The notes: generated by a model from the sequence alone, not told the origin. A stretch of 7,979 bases of DNA from a virus (IMGVR_UViG_2751185968_000016); one strand, 5' to 3'; shown: positions 1 through 7,979, numbered from the stretch's first letter. Made by a program: numbers and translations.

Positions 1-1356
1 TCAAATGACCAGTTTTTTCCATTCCTTACCGCGTGCGTCGTTGTAAATATCGGTCATTTTTTGATTCGAATGGCCCAGCAAAATTTTGGTATCAACCCCC
101 TGCTCTCTGAACAATCGCTCTGATAAAGATCTCTGCTCATGGAAAGAGGGTGGGGTGCCATTAGCACGCCAGTTGTAATCCACAGAATCCCGGGCTTTTT
201 TAAATGCAACGGTTAATGTTGCTGGCTTAACCATCCCGCCGCGCTTAGCTGTCCCTTTCGCGTGATGGTGGTGCAATAGCCACGGACTAAGAACGCAATC
301 GCGGCAGGATGACACCACATCATCTAGGGTGAGATTTAATTTATCGCAACGCAGAGCCAGAGGGATGGCAATCCGGGTTCCTGTTTTTTGCTGTTCGACA
401 TGAAGATAACCATCCCGGATATCCGAAAATTGCATTTTGCAAATATCTGAAAGGCGCTGGCCTGTCATCAGTGCCAGCAGCATACCGCGCTGTAAAAAGT
501 AACCATCCTTTTCCGCTGCGTTATAAATCATCATCCACTCATCAAAAGTCAGTCGCTGTCTTGATATCCGCACCTGCGGTTTTTTTGCCGATTCTGCAGG
601 GTTAAAGCCTGGCGGGACATCGCCCGTTTGCTGAGCTTCCCGGAAAACATCGATCAGTACCTTCCTGAAAATTTGTCCCATTCTGTTATGTCCTCTGGCC
701 TTGTACTCTTCCAGTACTGATACCACATCTTTTACGGTTATGGCATCTAACGGTCTGGTGCCAAAACGTTCATCAAATACCCTGAGAGGGGCCGCTTTCT
801 GTTTCAGCGTGTTGAGTTTGATCTCGCCGTTTTCATATCTTTCCTGTTGAATTTTTCTGTAATTATTCAGAAAAATGGTAACGGTTGATGAACCGCCGGT
901 ATCACTAATAATTTTCTCCTGCAGACTGAGCATTTGTTCCATTTGCTGCCGGGCAAGACGGCTGTTCGCTTCTGCTGCAATAGTTTCTGCCAGTTTCTGG
1001 TCAATACTGCCGAGACCGTGATTTTTGCCTGTTATGGGATGCCTGTAACGCCAGTAAACTTTGTTATTTCTTTTGTCAAAATACGGAGATAATCCCGGAA
1101 CATTGGTTTTATATTTTCGCGGCGCGCCATCTTCCAGTATCCTCTTCAAAGCAGGGTGATCTGTGGCGATCACCTCCGGCTTGTTTACCATTCCGACAAA
1201 GCGAGCTTGCGGATCCACTCGCCAGCGTCTTCCAACTTTTTTGGGGAGAGGAAATATCATTCCGGCTTTAGCGTATTTACTTAACGTACTCGGAGTTGGG
1301 ACCGGTTCACTGAATTCCTCTTTTGCCCACTCAGTGAGCAGAATAAGTCTTGCCAT
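1..1356 (-). CDS. int: Tyrosine recombinase (lambda Int-like integrase), 451 aa, with an in-frame N-terminal excisionase-like HTH segment
   Basis: Complete ORF; the minus-strand stop is at 1-3. Segments align to lambda Int from memory: VYWRYRHPITGKNHGLG, RLTFDEWMMIYNAAE, MTGQRLSDICKMQFSDIRDGYLHVEQQKTGTRIAIPLAL, PPSFHEQRSLSERL, LLGHSNQKMTDIYNDARGKEWKKLVI. Catalytic R, K, H-x-x-R, H and Y positions are all present. The first ~55 residues (LTEWAKEE...GMIFPLPKKVGRRWRVDPQARF) look like an Xis/AlpA-type HTH. Weak Shine-Dalgarno. Confidence 0.9.
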   Translation of the reverse strand: MARLILLTEWAKEEFSEPVPTPSTLSKYAKAGMIFPLPKKVGRRWRVDPQARFVGMVNKPEVIATDHPALKRILEDGAPRKYKTNVPGLSPYFDKRNNKVYWRYRHPITGKNHGLGSIDQKLAETIAAEANSRLARQQMEQMLSLQEKIISDTGGSSTVTIFLNNYRKIQQERYENGEIKLNTLKQKAAPLRVFDERFGTRPLDAITVKDVVSVLEEYKARGHNRMGQIFRKVLIDVFREAQQTGDVPPGFNPAESAKKPQVRISRQRLTFDEWMMIYNAAEKDGYFLQRGMLLALMTGQRLSDICKMQFSDIRDGYLHVEQQKTGTRIAIPLALRCDKLNLTLDDVVSSCRDCVLSPWLLHHHHAKGTAKRGGMVKPATLTVAFKKARDSVDYNWRANGTPPSFHEQRSLSERLFREQGVDTKILLGHSNQKMTDIYNDARGKEWKKLVI

Positions 1357-1420
1357 GAGCGTCGTTCGCTAATCATGGTCGCCGCCACTATAGCTGGTGG
1401 GCAACGACCGGGGTTGAACA

Positions 1421-3892
1421 TTAAAAATCAGCCTGATTCGGGATCAGTTTTTGCCAGATAACTGAAACGTATTTTGCCTGGTAACGGGCGTCATCAAGTG
1501 CATTATGGCGCTCACCTTCGAATGGAATAGCCGTTCTGGCATCGAAGTCTATGGCTTTCCCCAGCTCAACGATTGTGCGTACATCGCGATCGTTGTAGTA
1601 ACGCCACGGGCAGGGGATCCCCTGCCGTTCGTATGAACGGCGCAAAATCGTGTTGTCGAAGTTGGCTCCATTTCCCCAGACCTGAACAAAAAATTCACCG
1701 GAGTTTTCGTCGATAAATTCCCGCAATTGTAACAGTGCATCATCTAACGGGATTTCATCGGTCATAATGGCAGACTGCGCTTCACGTGATTGCTTCAGCC
1801 ACCTTTTAATGACGTCACGATCAATGACTCCGCCAGCAGTTTCCAGATCGATAGTCTTACTAAATTCCGGTCCCATATCTCCGGTTTGCGGATCGAAAAA
1901 TATTGCACCTATTGAGATAATCGGGGCATCAGGATTTTTTCCCATGGTTTCAAGGTCGATCATTAGATGGTCACACGTCCTGCTGGTGGATGTGATAACG
2001 TGATGACCGTTCATCGTAATTAAGGGATCTGCCGTCTCGCCAGTTTCACTATCGCTGGCGTGATCCTGAGCGCTACCAGCATTCTCCTTGTGTGGATGTT
2101 CAGCGCCTTCCATTTCCTTCGGATCATTTTCCTGAACTTCAACCTGATTCTCTTCATCGAATGTTTCCTGGTATGTTGCGTCACCCATCACCGCGCCACA
2201 ATCAGGGCAGTTGCCGCCACCGCTTTGACCGCAGGCGGTGCAGACTTTTTCCGGTTCCTGTTGCGCTACTGGCTCAGGTTGTTTCGTTTCTGGCTCGTTT
2301 TGTTGCGTATTTGGGCTGTTTTGTTCCGCTTTCTGGTCGTTCTGTTCCGATTCTTGCTGGTTCTGGTTTACAGAATCGCGGGTTTCAATCCCCTTTACCC
2401 ATTTCGGATCATTCGGGTCGCTAATCCCTGCAACAAATTCTCCGCGAGAGGCAGCAAGCAACTTATCGGCGTCAGGCTGGCTGATATTGGCTGCCTGCAT
2501 AATTTTGTTTACTTCGTCAGCGGTAACTTTTACCGGCTCTGGTTGTGCGGTCGTGTCAGATGCACCAGTATTTTGTTGTGAACCTGAGTACGTGCCGTTT
2601 TTACGTGCGAAGTATTCCTCTTTTGTGATTTCCGTAGCTCCCAAGGCTAGTGCTTTTTCCAGACCAGAAAGTTTGTTTGCGCGACCGTATTTTTCGCCAT
2701 CCTTGTCGGTGAAGAGGAAGTAGAACGGCCCCTCACGCTCTACAGATGGTTCGACTTCCACTTTGCATTCGGTTTTTTCGTTGCCCGGAATTGCCGTTTC
2801 CACTGCATCAGTTTCTGGTACTGGCGACGAGAGAGTATCAGTTGCGCTCTGATTTCTTCCTTCATCTTCAAACACGCCCTTTGTAGTCAGGTATTCAGTA
2901 ATGTATTTGTTCAGTGCCACAGGGTCTTTGTGAATGTCGATCGGACGTTCACGGACAAGGCCAAAAATAGTCTGGCGGTCGTAGCGAAGGGCATCAGGCT
3001 GTTTGCGCATTGATGCCGAGATACGCTTCCAGTCTTCGCGGTCGTTGTCGATAACTTCATTTTTTGCCCAGCGATGGATGCTGCCGTCAATGTTTCCGGC
3101 ATCCACATCACCAGGCCAGAGAGCGTAGGCCAGTTCGTCATCCAGTGTTTTCCATGTCTGCTTGTATTCGCGATGAATGGCAGCAATGACCGGGCTGATT
3201 TTTCCTGTTGAATTTTCACTGTGCTGTTGATTGGTTCTGGCGCGGGCGAGATCAACAACAGACGTGTATTTTCCGGTTTCCTTGCGTTCACCTTCGCGAC
3301 GTTTTTTCCAGATGCGCATCTCTGCCTGAATTTCGGGCCATTTGGCACCAGGCTTACATTTATGCTTAACCCACCCGATGGCATGCAGCTTAAGCTCCGG
3401 ATACATGGCGTTAACTTCTGGCATTTTCATCAACGCTTCAACGATATGTCCGTCGAATGTTGCCATGTCTTCCTGCAACAATTCCTGTGCGCTAATAACC
3501 ATATCAACGGTGATGTTTTCACATGTGTCGAACTTAACCATGACAGCGTTCTGTACTTCAGGGGCCAGCTTGTCAAAAGTGACGTTCATCGGATCGGATT
3601 CAGTCTCAACCGGGACAAAGGAAGCAGACTCCTCATCCCAGCGGTTTTCCTGCATATATTCAGCATCCCAGGAATCGAGGGCAGGGCGGGGTATACCGGG
3701 TTTATCCTCGCAGACAAGAAATTTATAAGCGCAGTCCTGAGCAGCCGGATAATGCTCCAGGAATTGCCAGTGAAATTTTGCGCGGGCGCGACGTTCATCA
3801 CCGGCTTCAATGGCTGTGGCTACAGCGACGGCACCTTCTTCCTTTATTGCCTGTTCGTCCGGAATGGCGGCGCAAATAAAGACTTTACTCAT
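1421..3892 (-). CDS. Large multidomain exonuclease-domain protein, 823 aa: YdfE-like N-terminal region, Q/E/N/P heptad linker, 4-Cys zinc ribbon, C-terminal DEDDh (DnaQ/RNase T-like) 3'-5' exonuclease
   Basis: Long ORF with GAGGT Shine-Dalgarno 7 nt upstream of the ATG at 3890-3892. C-terminal domain (residues ~640-815, nt ~1448-1975) has Exo I HLMIDLETMG, Exo II VWGNGANFDNTIL and Exo III HNALDDARYQAKY (H-x4-D), the DEDDh signature. Zinc ribbon CTACGQSGGGNCPDCG at residues 551-566 (nt 2195-2242). N-terminal ~330 residues resemble the K-12 Qin YdfE fragment as I recall it. The central segment KLLAASRGEFVAGISDPNDPKWVKGIETRD...CPDCGAVMGDATYQETFDEE resembles, from memory, the region just before the nuclease domain of Rac RecE. 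Confidence 0.85.
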   Translation of the reverse strand: MSKVFICAAIPDEQAIKEEGAVAVATAIEAGDERRARAKFHWQFLEHYPAAQDCAYKFLVCEDKPGIPRPALDSWDAEYMQENRWDEESASFVPVETESDPMNVTFDKLAPEVQNAVMVKFDTCENITVDMVISAQELLQEDMATFDGHIVEALMKMPEVNAMYPELKLHAIGWVKHKCKPGAKWPEIQAEMRIWKKRREGERKETGKYTSVVDLARARTNQQHSENSTGKISPVIAAIHREYKQTWKTLDDELAYALWPGDVDAGNIDGSIHRWAKNEVIDNDREDWKRISASMRKQPDALRYDRQTIFGLVRERPIDIHKDPVALNKYITEYLTTKGVFEDEGRNQSATDTLSSPVPETDAVETAIPGNEKTECKVEVEPSVEREGPFYFLFTDKDGEKYGRANKLSGLEKALALGATEITKEEYFARKNGTYSGSQQNTGASDTTAQPEPVKVTADEVNKIMQAANISQPDADKLLAASRGEFVAGISDPNDPKWVKGIETRDSVNQNQQESEQNDQKAEQNSPNTQQNEPETKQPEPVAQQEPEKVCTACGQSGGGNCPDCGAVMGDATYQETFDEENQVEVQENDPKEMEGAEHPHKENAGSAQDHASDSETGETADPLITMNGHHVITSTSRTCDHLMIDLETMGKNPDAPIISIGAIFFDPQTGDMGPEFSKTIDLETAGGVIDRDVIKRWLKQSREAQSAIMTDEIPLDDALLQLREFIDENSGEFFVQVWGNGANFDNTILRRSYERQGIPCPWRYYNDRDVRTIVELGKAIDFDARTAIPFEGERHNALDDARYQAKYVSVIWQKLIPNQADF

Positions 3893-3984
3893 TTTGTTTT
3901 ACCTCATTACAGATTTAAGGGTGAACAAATCCCTGCCATTGCTGGCATATAAGAATGAAACCGGATATTTATTACGGAACTGTT

Positions 3985-4176
3985 TTAAAGACCTGCCGGG
4001 ATTTCGTTATTATCCTGGTGAATAACTTTATCGACCGGGTAACAGTTACCGGGAATTTTCTGTTCGGTTGCTGCAGTCACACACTCCTGCATTGTCCTGT
4101 GAACACTGACTGCAATATCAACTGGCTCTCCGGAAACAAGAAAAACTGTCAGAACAAGTGCAAATGCTGTATTCAT
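3985..4176 (-). CDS. ydfD: YdfD-like small membrane lysis protein, 63 aa
   Basis: Internal start of track ORF 3985..4230. MNTAFALVLTVFLVSG is a hydrophobic N-terminal segment. Its ATG (4174-4176) overlaps the dicB stop (4173-4175) as ATGA, indicating translational coupling. Length and sequence match what I recall of Qin YdfD. Confidence 0.7.
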   Translation of the reverse strand: MNTAFALVLTVFLVSGEPVDIAVSVHRTMQECVTAATEQKIPGNCYPVDKVIHQDNNEIPAGL

Positions 4177-4361
4177 TGCCAGCATCCTTTTTGTATCGGA
4201 CGTAAACGGGCCAGCATTGAAAGAATGCATATTTTATTTAATAGCTCCCGTTCGTGTTTTCTCTTGTTAATGGCATCTTCAGTAAATACAGGGTTACTGA
4301 TATTGACACCAATTTCAAAACAACCTTCAGACGTATTAACGTTTGGTAATAACGTTTCCAT
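4173..4361 (-). CDS. dicB: DicB cell-division inhibitor (MinC-dependent FtsZ-ring inhibitor), 62 aa
   Basis: Internal Met of track ORF 4173..4466 gives METLLPNVNTSEGCFEIGVNISNPVFTEDAINKRKHERELLNKICILSMLARLRPIQKGCWQ, near-identical to the K-12 DicB sequence as I recall it. It sits directly downstream of DicF, as in Qin. Confidence 0.85.
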   Translation of the reverse strand: METLLPNVNTSEGCFEIGVNISNPVFTEDAINKRKHERELLNKICILSMLARLRPIQKGCWQ

Positions 4362-4526
4362 TATCGCGTCCTCAACAATGAATTTTGTGATGCGGTGCCT
4401 GGTGCCTCCAGGTGACGTTAACCAGTTAACAATTAACGCCGGATACAGAGAATCCACCCATAACACTGTTTTTGGTTTTAACTGTTCCGCGTGCGCTCAG
4501 CCGCATTCACCACATCACAAAATTCA

Positions 4527-4573
4527 CTTTAAAAAGGGCGGCAGAGCAGTCACGGAGTAAAACTGATACCGCC
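4527..4573 (-). terminator. Rho-independent terminator forming the DicF 3' end
   Basis: GC-rich imperfect stem (GGCGG...CUG/CAG...CCGCC within the DicF 3' half) followed by a U-tract (minus-strand TTTTT at plus 4531-4535). Confidence 0.5.
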
Positions 4574-4588
4574 AAACGTCACCAGAAA
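4536..4588 (-). ncRNA. dicF: DicF small regulatory RNA (Hfq-dependent antisense regulator of ftsZ and other targets)
   Basis: Reverse complement of 4536-4588 reads TTTCTGGTGACGTTTGGCGGTATCAGTTTTACTCCGTGACTGCTCTGCCGCCC, which matches the 53-nt DicF sequence as I remember it. It is followed on the minus strand by a TTTTTAAAG U-tract and lies between the ydfC-like and dicB genes. Confidence 0.85.
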
Positions 4589-4929
4589 ATTGATAACAGA
4601 GGGCGTTGCAGCGGGGTTGTCACTTAAGCGTATGGTCAACCTGACAACCCGGTGTCCTCAACGGTGGAAGGAATAACCCCGCCATACTTACCGCCGCGCC
4701 ATTTCGCGGATTGCCACAACCGGAAGCGCACGGTCGACGAAAATTTAACGACAGGCTATCTATGAACCAGCTACCTCGCCGTGCGCTTTCGCGTTATGGT
4801 CTGACTTTTCAGGGAAATATCCTTTCAGTAAACTGTCAGTGCCGGATGCTCACCCGTGTCCGGCGCACGCACTCCACCTCACCCGTGGAGAACTCCTTAA
4901 TTACCAACCTTAGCTTCGTTGGTTAGCTA

Positions 4930-5148
4930 TTAACGCGGGTATGTAATCATTCTGGCAATGCTTAATGCCGCTGCTTTTTCCAGATTAGTGATATCCTGCT
5001 CCAGAGCGGACAGATTTTCAGCCTGCTTAGCCCTGGCTTCATTGGCCCATTTCAGATCCTGCGCTGCATTAATTTTCTGGTGCATCCACTCATAAAGTTC
5101 ATCATCGGTATAGTCTGGCGCGATGATGACGGGTTCTCGTTTCTGCAT
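4930..5148 (-). CDS. ydfC: YdfC-like small protein, 72 aa, function unknown
   Basis: Track ORF with GAGGAA Shine-Dalgarno upstream of the ATG at 5146-5148. Its size and position (third small ORF after the repressor, upstream of DicF) match Qin ydfC. Predicted helical and charged. Confidence 0.65.
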   Translation of the reverse strand: MQKREPVIIAPDYTDDELYEWMHQKINAAQDLKWANEARAKQAENLSALEQDITNLEKAAALSIARMITYPR

Positions 5149-5177
5149 ACTGATTCCTCGCGGTGCTGCTTCGCTTA

Positions 5178-5306
5178 TCAGCCGTTAGATTTTGCCGAGC
5201 TGGAAAGCGCCTGTTTAAACTCACTGAAGCTGAGAGCTTCTTCGCCTTCGGCAAGGCCTTCGAAGTATTCTTCGTAAGCCTTTTCCATGATTGTGTCGAA
5301 ATCCAT
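5178..5306 (-). CDS. ydfB: YdfB-like tiny acidic protein, 42 aa (MDFDTIMEKAYEEYFEGLAEGEEALSFSEFKQALSSSAKSNG)
   Basis: Hand-translated from the minus strand; not in the ORF track because of its length. AGGTGA Shine-Dalgarno upstream. Its start lies 2 nt after the ydfA-like stop (TGA-T-ATG). Stop is tca at 5178-5180. Confidence 0.55.
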   Translation of the reverse strand: MDFDTIMEKAYEEYFEGLAEGEEALSFSEFKQALSSSAKSNG

Positions 5307-5307
5307 A

Positions 5308-5463
5308 TCACTCACCTGAGTTTCTTTCCAGCCAGCGACGGGCACCATTTTCGGTTTTAAACGTTTTGCTTTTGGTATACGTCATTGCGGTGAACGTGCC
5401 GTCCTGGTTTGGAAACACGCCGTACACCAGAGATTCGTTGTTGCCAAGATCGATAGTATCCAT
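5308..5463 (-). CDS. ydfA: YdfA-like small protein, 51 aa (MDTIDLGNNESLVYGVFPNQDGTFTAMTYTKSKTFKTENGARRWLERNSGE)
   Basis: Internal Met of track ORF 5308..5619, with GAGGT Shine-Dalgarno 5 nt upstream of the ATG at 5461-5463. First gene downstream of the putative pL-like promoter. Confidence 0.6.
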   Translation of the reverse strand: MDTIDLGNNESLVYGVFPNQDGTFTAMTYTKSKTFKTENGARRWLERNSGE

Positions 5464-5539
5464 GCTGACCTCATTTCCCCTTAACGCCGGGGTAGCGGAA
5501 CTGTTTGCGGAGAACACCGTGCGGTGTGTTGATGGAGGT

Positions 5540-5568
5540 AATTTAGTTTTCTCATTATTTTTCGTCAA
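5540..5568 (-). promoter_or_regulatory. Candidate sigma70 promoter of the leftward ydfA-dicF-dicB operon (pL analogue)
   Basis: On the minus strand: -35 TTGACG (plus 5563-5568), 17-nt spacer, -10 TAAATT (plus 5540-5545). Flanked by operator-like inverted repeats. Confidence 0.35.
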
Positions 5569-5590
5569 GGTTTTTTGATGAGAAAACTCA
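5543..5590. promoter_or_regulatory. Two operator-like inverted repeats (TGAG-N4-CTCA type) flanking the -35 of the leftward promoter
   Basis: TGAGAAAACTCA at 5579-5590 and a degenerate inverted copy TTAGTTTTCTCA at 5543-5554, centres ~36 bp apart. The same 12-mer recurs at 6115-6126 in the repressor/cro intergenic region. Confidence 0.4.
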
Positions 5591-5655
5591 AGTGCTGGCG
5601 CAAGATAAAGCCAATACATTGAAATGTAAGGCTTTAAAATTTTGTGAAGGGATGA

Positions 5656-6063
5656 TTATTGATGCTTGTTGCGTTTGCGAGCCTCTAATAGCTCGGTGAA
5701 CAGGCGATTAAAATTCTCAACGCGGGCGCGGAGTTCGCTGAGTTGTGCTTGTTGCTCTGATTTAGGAAGTGCGCGATACAAACGCAGCATCTCTAACTCA
5801 TCTTCCGATAAGTCTAGGGTACTATCGAGTGAAACAGGGGGAGCTGGTGTTTTGTCCTCGTCGCCAAACAGTATCCAGGTTGGTGAACATTGCAATACCT
5901 CGGCGAGGCGATGCAAATTTTGCCCGCGCGGGGCTGTATGGTCACTTTCCCATAATGAAATTGATGAGCCAGATACGCCAGCAGCTTTGCTTAAACCGTT
6001 TTGACTTAAGCCTACCTGCTTACGTCTTTCTCTAATGCGTTGACCTAAAGTTTTCTCGTTCAT
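5656..6063 (-). CDS. dicA: DicA-like XRE-family HTH repressor (CI/C2 analogue), 135 aa
   Basis: Internal start MNEKTLGQRIRERRKQVGLSQNGLSKAAGVSGSSISLWE... gives 135 aa, the DicA length. Classic HTH_XRE pattern and a conserved LQCSPTWILFGDED segment. Divergent from the Cro-like gene. The track's 152-aa form is an upstream extension. Confidence 0.8.
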   Translation of the reverse strand: MNEKTLGQRIRERRKQVGLSQNGLSKAAGVSGSSISLWESDHTAPRGQNLHRLAEVLQCSPTWILFGDEDKTPAPPVSLDSTLDLSEDELEMLRLYRALPKSEQQAQLSELRARVENFNRLFTELLEARKRNKHQ

Positions 6064-6084
6064 ATTTAGATATCTTAATAATCC

Positions 6085-6128
6085 TTGACTTGAGATTCCT
6101 TGAGTGATTAGCATTGAGAAAACTCAAT
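6085..6128 (+). promoter_or_regulatory. Candidate rightward promoter (pR analogue) with overlapping operator
   Basis: -35 TTGACT (6085-6090), 18-nt spacer, -10 TAGCAT (6109-6114). Inverted repeat TTGAGAAAACTCAA (6114-6127) lies immediately downstream. Further TTGAG half-sites at 6090-6094 and 6100-6104. Confidence 0.4.
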
Positions 6129-6140
6129 ATTGGAGGTGCG

Positions 6141-6368
6141 ATGTTTAAATCAGACGTAATTAATTTTTACGGTACGAAAGCCAAAGTAGCGAAAGCTGCT
6201 GGCGTTGACCCATCTGCTGTTTCTCAATGGCAAGAGCTAGTTCCTGAAGGTCGCGCGATGCGTCTACAGGAGGCATCTGGCGGCGAGCTTCTGTATGATC
6301 CCAAGGTTTATGACGAATATCGTAAGACGAAGCGGGCGGGGCGGTTGAACAATGAAAATCACTCCTGA
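6141..6368 (+). CDS. Cro-like small HTH regulator of the YdaS/DicC family, 75 aa
   Basis: GGAGG Shine-Dalgarno at 6133-6137 and ATG at 6141; the track's 84-aa form starts upstream of the SD. Conserved YdaS/DicC-type core (FYGTKAKVAKAAGVDPSAVSQW). Divergent from the repressor. Confidence 0.75.
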   Translation: MFKSDVINFYGTKAKVAKAAGVDPSAVSQWQELVPEGRAMRLQEASGGELLYDPKVYDEYRKTKRAGRLNNENHS

Positions 6369-6873
6369 ACAGGCTCGTGAGGCTCTGGATGCCTGGATAT
6401 GTCGACCAGGAATGACACAGGAGCAGGCGACGATATTAATCACTGAAGCATTCTGGGCTTTGAAAGAGCGCCCGAACATCGATGTTCAGCGTGTCACAGA
6501 TGAAGGTGGCGCGGTTGATCAGCGAGCGCTTGGCGTTAATCGAGTGAAGATATTCGAACGCTGGAAGGCTATCGACACCAGGGATAAGCGTGAAAAGTTC
6601 ACGGCGCTAGTGCCTGCAATTATGGAGGCTATCCGGATTAATGATTTCAGGTTGTATCGTGAAATTAGTGACGGAAAAAGCATCACGTACATGATCGCCG
6701 GGTTAAACAAAGAATATGGCGATGTGGTGGAGTCCGGACTGCTTTTTGCTGATCCTGCCGTAGTGGATCGTGAAACTGACGAACTTATAGAAAAAGCAAT
6801 TGCTTTCAAACTTGCGTATCGACAGCAATACCAACAAAAAGCTGGATGGAATTATGAGCCTTCTTTTTGCTGA
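6352..6873 (+). CDS. YdaT-like protein, 173 aa (CII-position regulator; sometimes annotated as a toxin)
   Basis: Overlaps the Cro-like stop by 17 nt. ERWKAIDTRDKREKFTALVPAIMEAI resembles the Rac YdaT core as I recall it. Sits at the cII position of lambdoid maps. Confidence 0.7.
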   Translation: MKITPEQAREALDAWICRPGMTQEQATILITEAFWALKERPNIDVQRVTDEGGAVDQRALGVNRVKIFERWKAIDTRDKREKFTALVPAIMEAIRINDFRLYREISDGKSITYMIAGLNKEYGDVVESGLLFADPAVVDRETDELIEKAIAFKLAYRQQYQQKAGWNYEPSFC

Positions 6874-7631
6874 ACGCCCACTGGTTATAAACACACAGCT
6901 TGCGATGAAGATTGGCTTAAATGAAGCCATTGTGTTGCAGCAGTTGCATTACTGGTTGAGAGATACCAATTCCGGCATGGAATGTGATGGTGTTCGCTGG
7001 ATTTACAACACAACGGAACAATGGCTGGAACAGTTCCCATTCTGGTCAGAGTCAACGTTAAAGCGCGCGTTTGCAAGTCTGAAAACGCTGGGGCTCTTGC
7101 GTTGTGAAAAGCTCAATAAATCAAAGCGCGATATGACCAATTTCTACACGATTAACTATGGGAGCGAGCTTTTAGATGATGGCAAATTGAGCGAATCCAT
7201 CGGTTCAAAATGCGCCGCTCCATCAGGTCAAAATGACACGATGGAAGAGGTCAAAATGAAACGCTCCATTGGTTCAAAACGACCCAATGTCATCGGGTCA
7301 AAATGGCCCGATGATCCTACAGAGAATACAACAGAGATTACTACAGAGAATAAAAACACTTTTCGTCCGGAAGCTTCGCAACCGGACCCGCAGACGGCTG
7401 AACAGGATTTTTTAATCCGGCACCCTGGCGCAGTTGTGTTTAGTGCGAAAAAACGCCAGTGGGGTAGCCAGGAGGATCTGGCGTGTGCGCAGTGGATATG
7501 GGGGCGGATCGTGGGTCTCTACGAACAGGCCGCCAGTGATGATGGCGAGATCATGCGACCAAAAGAGCCTAACTGGACTGTCTGGGCCAATGATGTGCGC
7601 ACAATGCGGATGCTGGATGGCAGAAGCCACA
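6854..7631 (+). pseudogene. Replication initiator (lambda O-like replisome organizer), C-terminally truncated by IS insertion
   Basis: The N-terminal domain FAERPLVINTQLAMKIGLNEAIVLQQLHYWL...TLKRAFASLKTLGLL is typical of phage O-type initiators. Iterons lie inside the gene. Homology-independent break at 7631/7632, where an IS terminal inverted repeat begins; the remaining track translation to 7792 is read-through into the IS. Confidence 0.6.
7195..7306. repeat. Five direct iterons (consensus about CATCGGTCAAAATG) at 23-24 bp spacing: candidate prophage replication origin
   Basis: TCAAAA cores at 7205, 7228, 7251, 7274 and 7298. Followed by an A-rich segment with a duplicated TACAGAGAATA (7318-7353). 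Embedded in the O-like gene, as lambda ori is in O. Confidence 0.6.
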
Positions 7632-7671
7632 TGAACCGCTCCGGGTTTCCTGGAGAGTGTTTTATCTGTGA
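7632..7671. repeat. Terminal inverted repeat of the IS3-family element
   Basis: TGAACCGCTCCGGGTTTCCTGGAGAG... begins with the 5'-TG characteristic of IS3-family ends and resembles the IS629/IS1203 end sequence as I recall it. Confidence 0.5.
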
Positions 7672-7673
7672 AC

Positions 7674-7979
7674 TCAGGCTGCCAGATCATCGTTTCCGAT
7701 GGAAGCATAATAAGCTTTTTCTGCTTCTGCCGGAGGGATGTGGCCCAGCCTTTCCAGCAATCGTCGATTATTATACCAGTCCACCCACGTGAGTGTGGCC
7801 AGTTCCACTTCTGCACGGTTTTTCCAGCTCTTACGGTGTATTACCTCCGCTTTGTAAAGACCATTGATGCTCTCCGCCATCGCGTTGTCATACGAGTCGC
7901 CTGTACTTCCTGTTGATGCCAGTAATCCGGCTTCCTTAAGCCGCTGTGTGTAGGCCAGCGATACATACTGAGAACCTTT
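7674..7979 (-). CDS. IS3-family transposase OrfB, C-terminal 101 aa (5' end outside the window)
   Basis: Minus-strand frame is open from the window end to the stop at 7674-7676: KGSQYVSLAYTQRLKEAGLLASTGSTGDSYDNAMAESINGLYKAEVIH...NNRRLLERLGH..., containing the DDE-domain YDNA..AES block typical of IS3-family OrfB. Confidence 0.85.
   Translation of the reverse strand, partial: KGSQYVSLAYTQRLKEAGLLASTGSTGDSYDNAMAESINGLYKAEVIHRKSWKNRAEVELATLTWVDWYNNRRLLERLGHIPPAEAEKAYYASIGNDDLAA

Follow-up and report, generated by a model that had tools for sequence, protein, structure and literature searches.

A viral sequence, IMGVR_UViG_2751185968_000016, carries between positions 3985 and 4588 what an earlier note, made from the sequence alone, had described as an intact host cell-division and lysis module: the small RNA DicF, followed by dicB and a ydfD-like gene. 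The locus raises the question of whether this assignment is right, how the module would be expressed and act, and whether its intactness reflects selection at this site. The analysis covered the window, that is, the whole stretch of 7,979 nucleotides.

When the window was read both ways, all module coordinates of the earlier note held and every feature of the module was found on the minus strand. The identity, integrity and arrangement of the parts are established in the window. The module is well described and annotated in RefSeq genomes and phage records; it was thus correctly identified and is already known. We consider it very probable that dicF, dicB and ydfD here form part of the early-left (pL-type) operon of a Qin/PPompW-type lambdoid prophage, encoded on the minus strand and acting as in K-12; every functional step of this reading we infer from K-12 experiments on near-identical sequences. 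The parts, in the direction of transcription, are:

4589..4929, minus strand: ydfC-dicF leader of the polycistronic precursor, 341 nt, 97% identical to K-12
4536..4588, minus strand: DicF small RNA, 53 nt (Rfam RF00039, identity to K-12 b1574, fold)
4362..4535, minus strand: dicF-dicB spacer, a strongly structured RNA of 174 nt (fold, conservation)
4173..4361, minus strand: dicB, cell-division inhibitor, 62 aa (PF05358, identity to K-12, RefSeq, PHROG 1251)
3985..4176, minus strand: ydfD, DUF1482 lysis protein, 63 aa (PF07358, identity to K-12, PHROG 1092)

The covariance model RF00039 was searched against the whole window and yielded a match of 76.7 bits (E = 4.5e-16; gathering score 48 bits) at 4587..4536 on the minus strand, covering positions 1-52 of the 52-position model. 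DicF was the sole Rfam family to exceed its gathering score in the whole window. Bases 4588..4536 were identical to K-12 dicF (b1574) at 53 of 53 positions, including both target-pairing regions, an exact match, as the earlier note had stated.

Folding with ViennaRNA gave a single-stranded 5' region followed by a 3' stem-loop (4573..4537), and a run of U residues (4535..4531, UUUUU) lies directly after this hairpin, as expected of an intrinsic terminator and as the earlier note had claimed. This terminator was absent from a simple terminator scan because the scan rule, which allows loops of 3-8 nt only, excludes the DicF loop; the omission was treated as a limit of the scan, since the Rfam structure and the ViennaRNA fold both predict the hairpin followed by the U-run.

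Sixty distinct copies of the module were used as the sample for the comparisons of gene overlap, duplex and alleles. Among the aligned DicF alleles, variation was found mainly in the terminator stem-loop and the 5' region TTTCTGGTGACGTTTGGCGG was mostly kept. One allele, present in 4 of the 60 distinct sequences, had the inner stem and loop replaced and the outer GGCGG/CCGCC stem retained.

The dicB frame starts with the ATG at 4361 and ends with the stop codon at 4173-4175, and its product matched Pfam PF05358 with 124.9 bits (cut-off 27; E = 1e-36), residues 1-62 aligning with profile positions 1-62. It is identical to K-12 DicB at 54 of 62 residues (87%), with 13 differences in 189 nucleotides. 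The identical protein is listed in RefSeq as DicB (WP_000449179.1). At least 9 viral contigs encode it, and the commonest form in the sample differs from it by one residue; the window DicB is a member of a common allele group.

The ydfD frame opens with the ATG at 4176 and closes with the stop codon at 3985-3987. YdfD scored 88 bits against PF07358/DUF1482 (cut-off 25) and is identical to the K-12 protein at 59 of 63 residues (94%). In K-12 YdfD, terminal deletions and the substitutions N1A and L63A each abolish lysis (PMC8835842); in the window the full 63 residues are present, with both termini intact and N2 and L63 retained. The dicB stop and the ydfD start overlap as ATGA (4173-4176), and the sequence CAATGA was kept in 60 of 60 distinct copies. 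The two further claims made of these genes, that a ydfD-like frame follows dicB through an ATGA overlap and that the 62- and 63-aa products have homologs, were thus borne out.

Plus-strand open reading frames that cover parts of the same region, among them one of 201 aa (3955-4560) and one of 71 aa (4711-4926), were rejected. None has family support, and the minus-strand features already known suffice to account for the sequence; part of the 71-aa frame is annotated as a 'hypothetical protein' in some RefSeq genomes.

The module stands in a larger transcription unit, for which the following features were assigned:

5308..5463, minus strand: ydfA, 100% identical to the K-12 protein (PF07151, RefSeq)
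5178..5306, minus strand: ydfB, 100% identical to the K-12 protein (RefSeq)
4930..5148, minus strand: ydfC, 98.6% identical to the K-12 protein (RefSeq)
5540..5568, minus strand: promoter-like site TTGACG-17-TAAATT, within the region 5540..5591; a putative promoter
5656..6063, minus strand: DicA-like HTH repressor, 135 aa from the ATG at 6063 (HTH_3; RefSeq CDS coordinates)
6115..6127, no strand assigned: third copy of the 13-nt motif TGAGAAAACTCAA, a putative operator, exact repeat of 5579-5591
6141..6368, plus strand: Cro-like regulator in the place of K-12 DicC (PF14549 P22_Cro; RefSeq CDS coordinates)

The genes ydfA, ydfB and ydfC, together 4930..5463 on the minus strand, are the promoter-proximal genes of the dicBF operon, and dicF lies between ydfC and dicB within this prophage early operon. 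The series ydfA-ydfB-ydfC-dicF-dicB-ydfD is encoded on the same strand, a DicA-type repressor gene lies upstream, and dicB and ydfD overlap, as in a dicBF operon of the Qin type. The identical sequence bears the annotations ydfD, dicB and ydfC in RefSeq. Beyond the divergent Cro-like gene, a YdaT-like gene was found.

The promoter-like site is flanked by an inverted repeat (5542-5555 and 5578-5591). The motif TGAGAAAACTCAA occurs exactly twice, at 5579-5591 beside the promoter upstream of ydfA and at 6115-6127 between the repressor and cro genes, with an inverted copy across the promoter; by a rough estimate, about 0.004 chance matches of this exact repeat are expected in 761 nt. These repeated motifs are probably operators of the DicA-like repressor. 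A promoter and operators of the K-12 DicA type were not found in this region: homology to K-12 ends at 5534, about the expected transcript start, the repressor and K-12 DicA share 57% identity over 127 aa, and the 13-nt motif differs. The sequence comparison indicates that the locus is probably a heteroimmune relative of K-12 Qin, which leaves the identity of dicF-dicB-ydfD unaffected. Since the repressor is only 57% identical and there is no promoter homology with K-12, the inducing signals may also differ from those of K-12.

Published DicF processing sites were placed on the predicted structure of the transcript. The leader (fold z = -2.3) is predicted to form an imperfect duplex in which 4714-4735 pairs with 4778-4799. 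A 190-nt DicF species and an RNase III cut at 813/814 have been described (PMC10448788), and this cut would map to about 4721-4725, inside the predicted leader duplex. A 72-nt species is also produced by an RNase III cut (PMC5069750); as 53 + 19 nt, it would end at about 4517, within the 5' arm of a predicted 21-bp duplex in the spacer. Both mapped cuts fall in predicted duplexes, in agreement with the published processing of DicF (PMC5069750, PMC10448788). Taken together, the 813/814 cut and the 190-nt species imply that about 1003 nt separate the transcription start from the 3' end of DicF; a start near 5534-5538, immediately after the promoter-like site, agrees with this distance. The figure of 1,146 nt given for ydfABC-dicF (PMC10448788) does not fit the geometry of the window.

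The spacer between dicF and dicB has a predicted minimum free energy of -73.8 kcal/mol (z = -5.8), and none of 200 shuffled sequences was as stable. The fold contains the long-range duplex of 21 bp mentioned above, in which 4528..4508 is paired with 4397..4377; 20-21 of its 21 pairs were retained in 60 of 60 distinct copies, including an E. albertii copy that is 76% identical overall. A covariation test on the same 60 copies showed the pairs to be nearly invariant, none having changed on both sides; the predicted structure is thus supported by stability and by conservation, and covariation is neutral either way. The spacer differs from that of K-12 at 1 of 174 nt, and its mean pairwise diversity (0.021) is lower than that of dicB (0.030), ydfD (0.047) and dicF (0.055). 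The spacer is the best-conserved part of the module.

In one viral contig (L166, 4028-4441, minus strand), DicF and a spacer of approximately 98% identity precede a dicB gene whose product is only 56% identical and a gene for a diverged YdfD; conservation is therefore lost there exactly at the start codon of dicB. A canonical copy of STnc100 is located in the late region of this contig (12464-12636).

A permissive Rfam scan matched the spacer region (4329-4538, minus strand) to the whole 206-position model of STnc100 (RF02076) with 38.7 bits (E = 2e-6), which is below the gathering score of 47 bits, so that membership of the family is not assigned; canonical STnc100 copies score 87-200 bits. 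A reciprocal sequence-only search from the spacer with nhmmer gave weak matches (E about 0.005-0.1), 39 of 50 of which fell on canonical STnc100 copies. STnc100, a prophage sRNA, is encoded in the late region of Stx-type phages, and it has in common with the spacer a closing long-range stem and a CACC-GGAGGCACC-GGCACC hairpin. The spacer differs from STnc100 in its position, in the early-left operon, and at its 3' end, where it lacks a separate terminator and the dicB start codon follows directly. A distant relationship, not membership, is probable.

The spacer might itself be a functional RNA element and a diverged STnc100/PasD relative, forming a module for RNase III processing and translation control that separates DicF from the dicB message; we put this forward tentatively, as a rather doubtful suggestion. 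A link between STnc100 and the dicBF operon is absent both from the Pas sRNA preprint, in which DicF and dicB do not occur at all, and from the OMV paper, where DicF occurs once in another context. The conservation of the spacer and its weak resemblance to STnc100 are perhaps worth targeted work in RNA biology.

The mechanism can be proposed by analogy with K-12, where DicA represses the dicBF promoter, RNase E makes the 5' end of the 53-nt form and RNase III produces the 190-nt form (PMC10448788). In the window, the DicA-like repressor would silence the promoter upstream of ydfA. Once repression was lifted, one long transcript would be made through ydfA, ydfB, ydfC, dicF, dicB and ydfD, and probably through the exonuclease, xis and int genes. 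DicF would then be excised from this transcript, RNase E generating its 5' end and RNase III the 5' end of the 190-nt form; its 3' end would arise by termination at the hairpin and U-run or by an RNase III cut in the long duplex downstream, the two routes described for DicF (PMC5069750). With Hfq, DicF would pair with and repress the ftsZ, xylR and pykA mRNAs, its targets in K-12, and the manX mRNA would be a candidate target, as it is there (PMC5069750).

Readthrough of the DicF terminator would allow translation of DicB and then, via the ATGA overlap, of YdfD. DicB would bind MinC and carry it to ZipA at midcell, where the FtsZ ring would be dissolved; the DicB-MinC complex would also disable ManYZ and so block DNA entry of lambda-like phages. 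Both effects have been described, the same MinC interaction acting with ZipA against the FtsZ ring and inhibiting ManYZ, with about 100-fold resistance to lambda (PMC6832061). YdfD would inhibit IspG and cause a lysis dependent on cell division, which DicB would counteract; in K-12, YdfD has been found to inhibit IspG and to lyse the cells, a lysis that is prevented when dicB is co-expressed (PMC8835842). The host genes concerned, ftsZ, minC, manYZ and ispG, are located outside the window. The control over FtsZ, septation and lysis, and the phage resistance, that the earlier note attributed to the module are supported by these experiments on near-identical genes (PMC5069750, PMC6832061, PMC8835842). 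PADLOC had no model matching DicB, YdfD, YdfA, YdfB or YdfC, and the anti-phage role of the module would follow from the literature.

Apart from a correct annotation, the finding that this strain has a canonical dicBF module is of little consequence. If the operon were derepressed, the cells could, by analogy with K-12, filament or lyse, and phages that use ManYZ for entry could be excluded.

Two readings that would change this picture were weighed. One takes DicB to be a longer protein of 97 aa, starting at an in-frame GTG at 4466 inside the spacer: the frame (4466..4173) is open from there into dicB, and the spacer is very well conserved. The Pfam model, however, covers precisely the 62 residues counted from the ATG at 4361, RefSeq and the K-12 annotation both give the 62-aa form, a GAGGA Shine-Dalgarno sequence precedes this ATG just 3' of the spacer duplex, and the conservation of the spacer is explained by its RNA structure, with its z of -5.8 and its near-invariant 21-bp duplex. 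The extended frame has no family support, the known minus-strand features suffice, and it was rejected as highly improbable. The other reading accepts the 62-aa protein and an intact sequence and supposes that the module does not work here, through a DicB allele that does not bind MinC or an operon that is never derepressed. The eight residues by which DicB differs from the experimentally tested K-12 protein are clustered in the C-terminal tail, four of them within the last 8 residues, and the immunity region is unlike that of K-12. Between the window and K-12, dN/dS was 0.68 for dicB and about 1.2 for ydfD, values that stem from very few changes, too few to be informative by themselves. Against a non-working module stand the wide occurrence of this DicB allele in prophages and viral contigs and the retention of the dicB frame, its Shine-Dalgarno sequence and the ATGA coupling; DicF, moreover, is identical to the RNA tested in K-12, so that the RNA arm at least should work. 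We regard a non-working module as unlikely and retain the reading in which dicF, dicB and ydfD act as in K-12.

Whether this intactness is a sign of selection depends on the genes around the module and on the age of the prophage. The flanking features are:

3934..3947, minus strand: weak hairpin resembling a terminator, between ydfD and the exonuclease gene (consensus scan only)
1421..3892, minus strand: exonuclease, 823 aa (PF16473, PHROG 2082, WP_000048529.1)
1..1356, minus strand: xis-int fusion frame, 451 aa, one C being lost from GCGCGCCCGCG at about 1121
6854..7631, plus strand: O-like replication initiation gene, interrupted (family match; IS junction 7631/7632)
7632..7979, minus strand: end of an IS3-family (IS1203-like) element (IS annotation; similarity to L001 ends at 7631)

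The hairpin is tentative, because such sites are no more numerous than expected by chance. The exonuclease is full length: it aligned end to end with PHROG 2082, has the length of WP_000048529.1 and carries a C-terminal DEDDh 3'-5' domain (PF16473, Rv2179c-like, 213 bits). In the record of phage Tritos the 823-aa protein is labelled exonuclease VIII; its recognisable Pfam domain is that of a DEDDh 3'-5' exonuclease.

The integrase gene does not have the intact form seen in relatives. The 1-nt deletion joins Xis residues 1-79 to Int residues 4-376, and from its native start (1130) int reaches a stop after 32 codons. The deletion was found in none of the 1722 E. coli records that hold the region and so reflects either a mutation private to this sequence or an error of assembly. 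The O-like gene is cut by the IS after about 259 of 321 codons, and no complete genome in the collection shares the IS junction at high identity. The earlier note had described the module as lying beside an intact int and exonuclease; the exonuclease part of that statement stands and the int part does not.

From these neighbours it had been concluded that selection maintains the module, a conclusion to which the window, with its xis-int frameshift, IS insertion and recency, gives no support. We judge it rather probable that the module is intact only through recent acquisition of the prophage, as an ordinary piece of a young, newly crippled element; this concerns the cause of intactness and not the identity of the module. 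Positions 1-7631 differ from the prophage of E. coli strain 700481 at 5 positions (4 substitutions and 1 deletion; 99.93% identity), and selection is not needed to account for intactness because 5 differences in 7.6 kb leave little time for decay. Both lesions appear recent, since no complete genome examined shares either the xis-int frameshift or the replication-gene IS, and the same module is present in viable phages, simply as part of the early programme. Evidence from the family at large points the other way: pooled pN/pS was 0.40 for dicB and 0.29 for ydfD, 4749 of 5426 genomes contain the module, in a median of 2 copies, and it survives in the heavily decayed Qin prophage of K-12. Purifying selection across the family is consistent with the pooled pN/pS and with how widely the module occurs, and concerns the family and not this locus; for the window itself, recent acquisition is the reading that we keep.

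The distribution was determined with the 1051-nt stretch 3900-4950, whose matches in those 4749 complete E. coli genomes (87.5%) fell in a median of 2 places per genome. The module was also present in 60 phage records, including the complete isolated phages Tritos, mEp460, vB_EcoS-813R8 and PPompW. A survey of about 2000 phage genomes in 2016 reported no matches to DicB or DicF (PMC5069750); the 60 phage records make it less likely that only defective prophages retain the module. When one genome per species was considered, close relatives of DicB were found only in Escherichia and Shigella, apart from one Veillonella MAG contig. The last is a 22.9-kb contig (L007) in a Veillonella parvula MAG, with a dicB locus 84% identical to the window DicB; it is probably a mis-binned Escherichia prophage contig.

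Among known systems, the resemblance of DicB to lambda Kil is one of functional analogy and not of family membership, and Kil has no sRNA partner. We know of no sequence relationship between the two proteins. Kil is a small early-left product that blocks assembly of the FtsZ ring in a ZipA-dependent manner during phage development (PMC3961180).

The same sRNA family occurs in EHEC O157:H7 on several lambdoid prophages, in multiple dicF copies (PMC5069750). The window carries the canonical K-12 allele rather than a variant; variants, some with another terminator stem-loop, are included in the 60-copy sample.

The closest characterized system is the dicBF operon of K-12 Qin (ydfABC-dicF-dicB-ydfD-ydfE), in which gene order, spacing and overlaps are the same as in the window: the spacer is 174 nt in both, the leader 340 nt in K-12 and 341 nt in the window, and the overlap 4 nt in both. 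The two loci differ in the exonuclease gene, full length in the window and reduced in K-12 to ydfE, an IS2-truncated N-terminal remnant (pseudogene). They differ also in the repressor, with its limited identity to DicA, and in the unrelated promoter and operators, and are probably heteroimmune. The prophage adjoins ompW in the closest relative of the window, the record of strain 700481, where the same 7.6 kb is annotated in the order int, excisionase, exonuclease, ydfD, dicB, ydfC, ydfB, ydfA, HTH, Cro.

The lambdoid phages of the Tritos, PPompW and mEp460 type show the same int-xis-exonuclease-ydfD-dicB-DicF-ydfCBA-repressor/cro order and are 95-97% identical over the 1-kb module; in the complete phage Tritos, DicF is already annotated. 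These are complete phage genomes, whereas the copy in the window has frameshifted xis/int genes and an IS in the replication gene.
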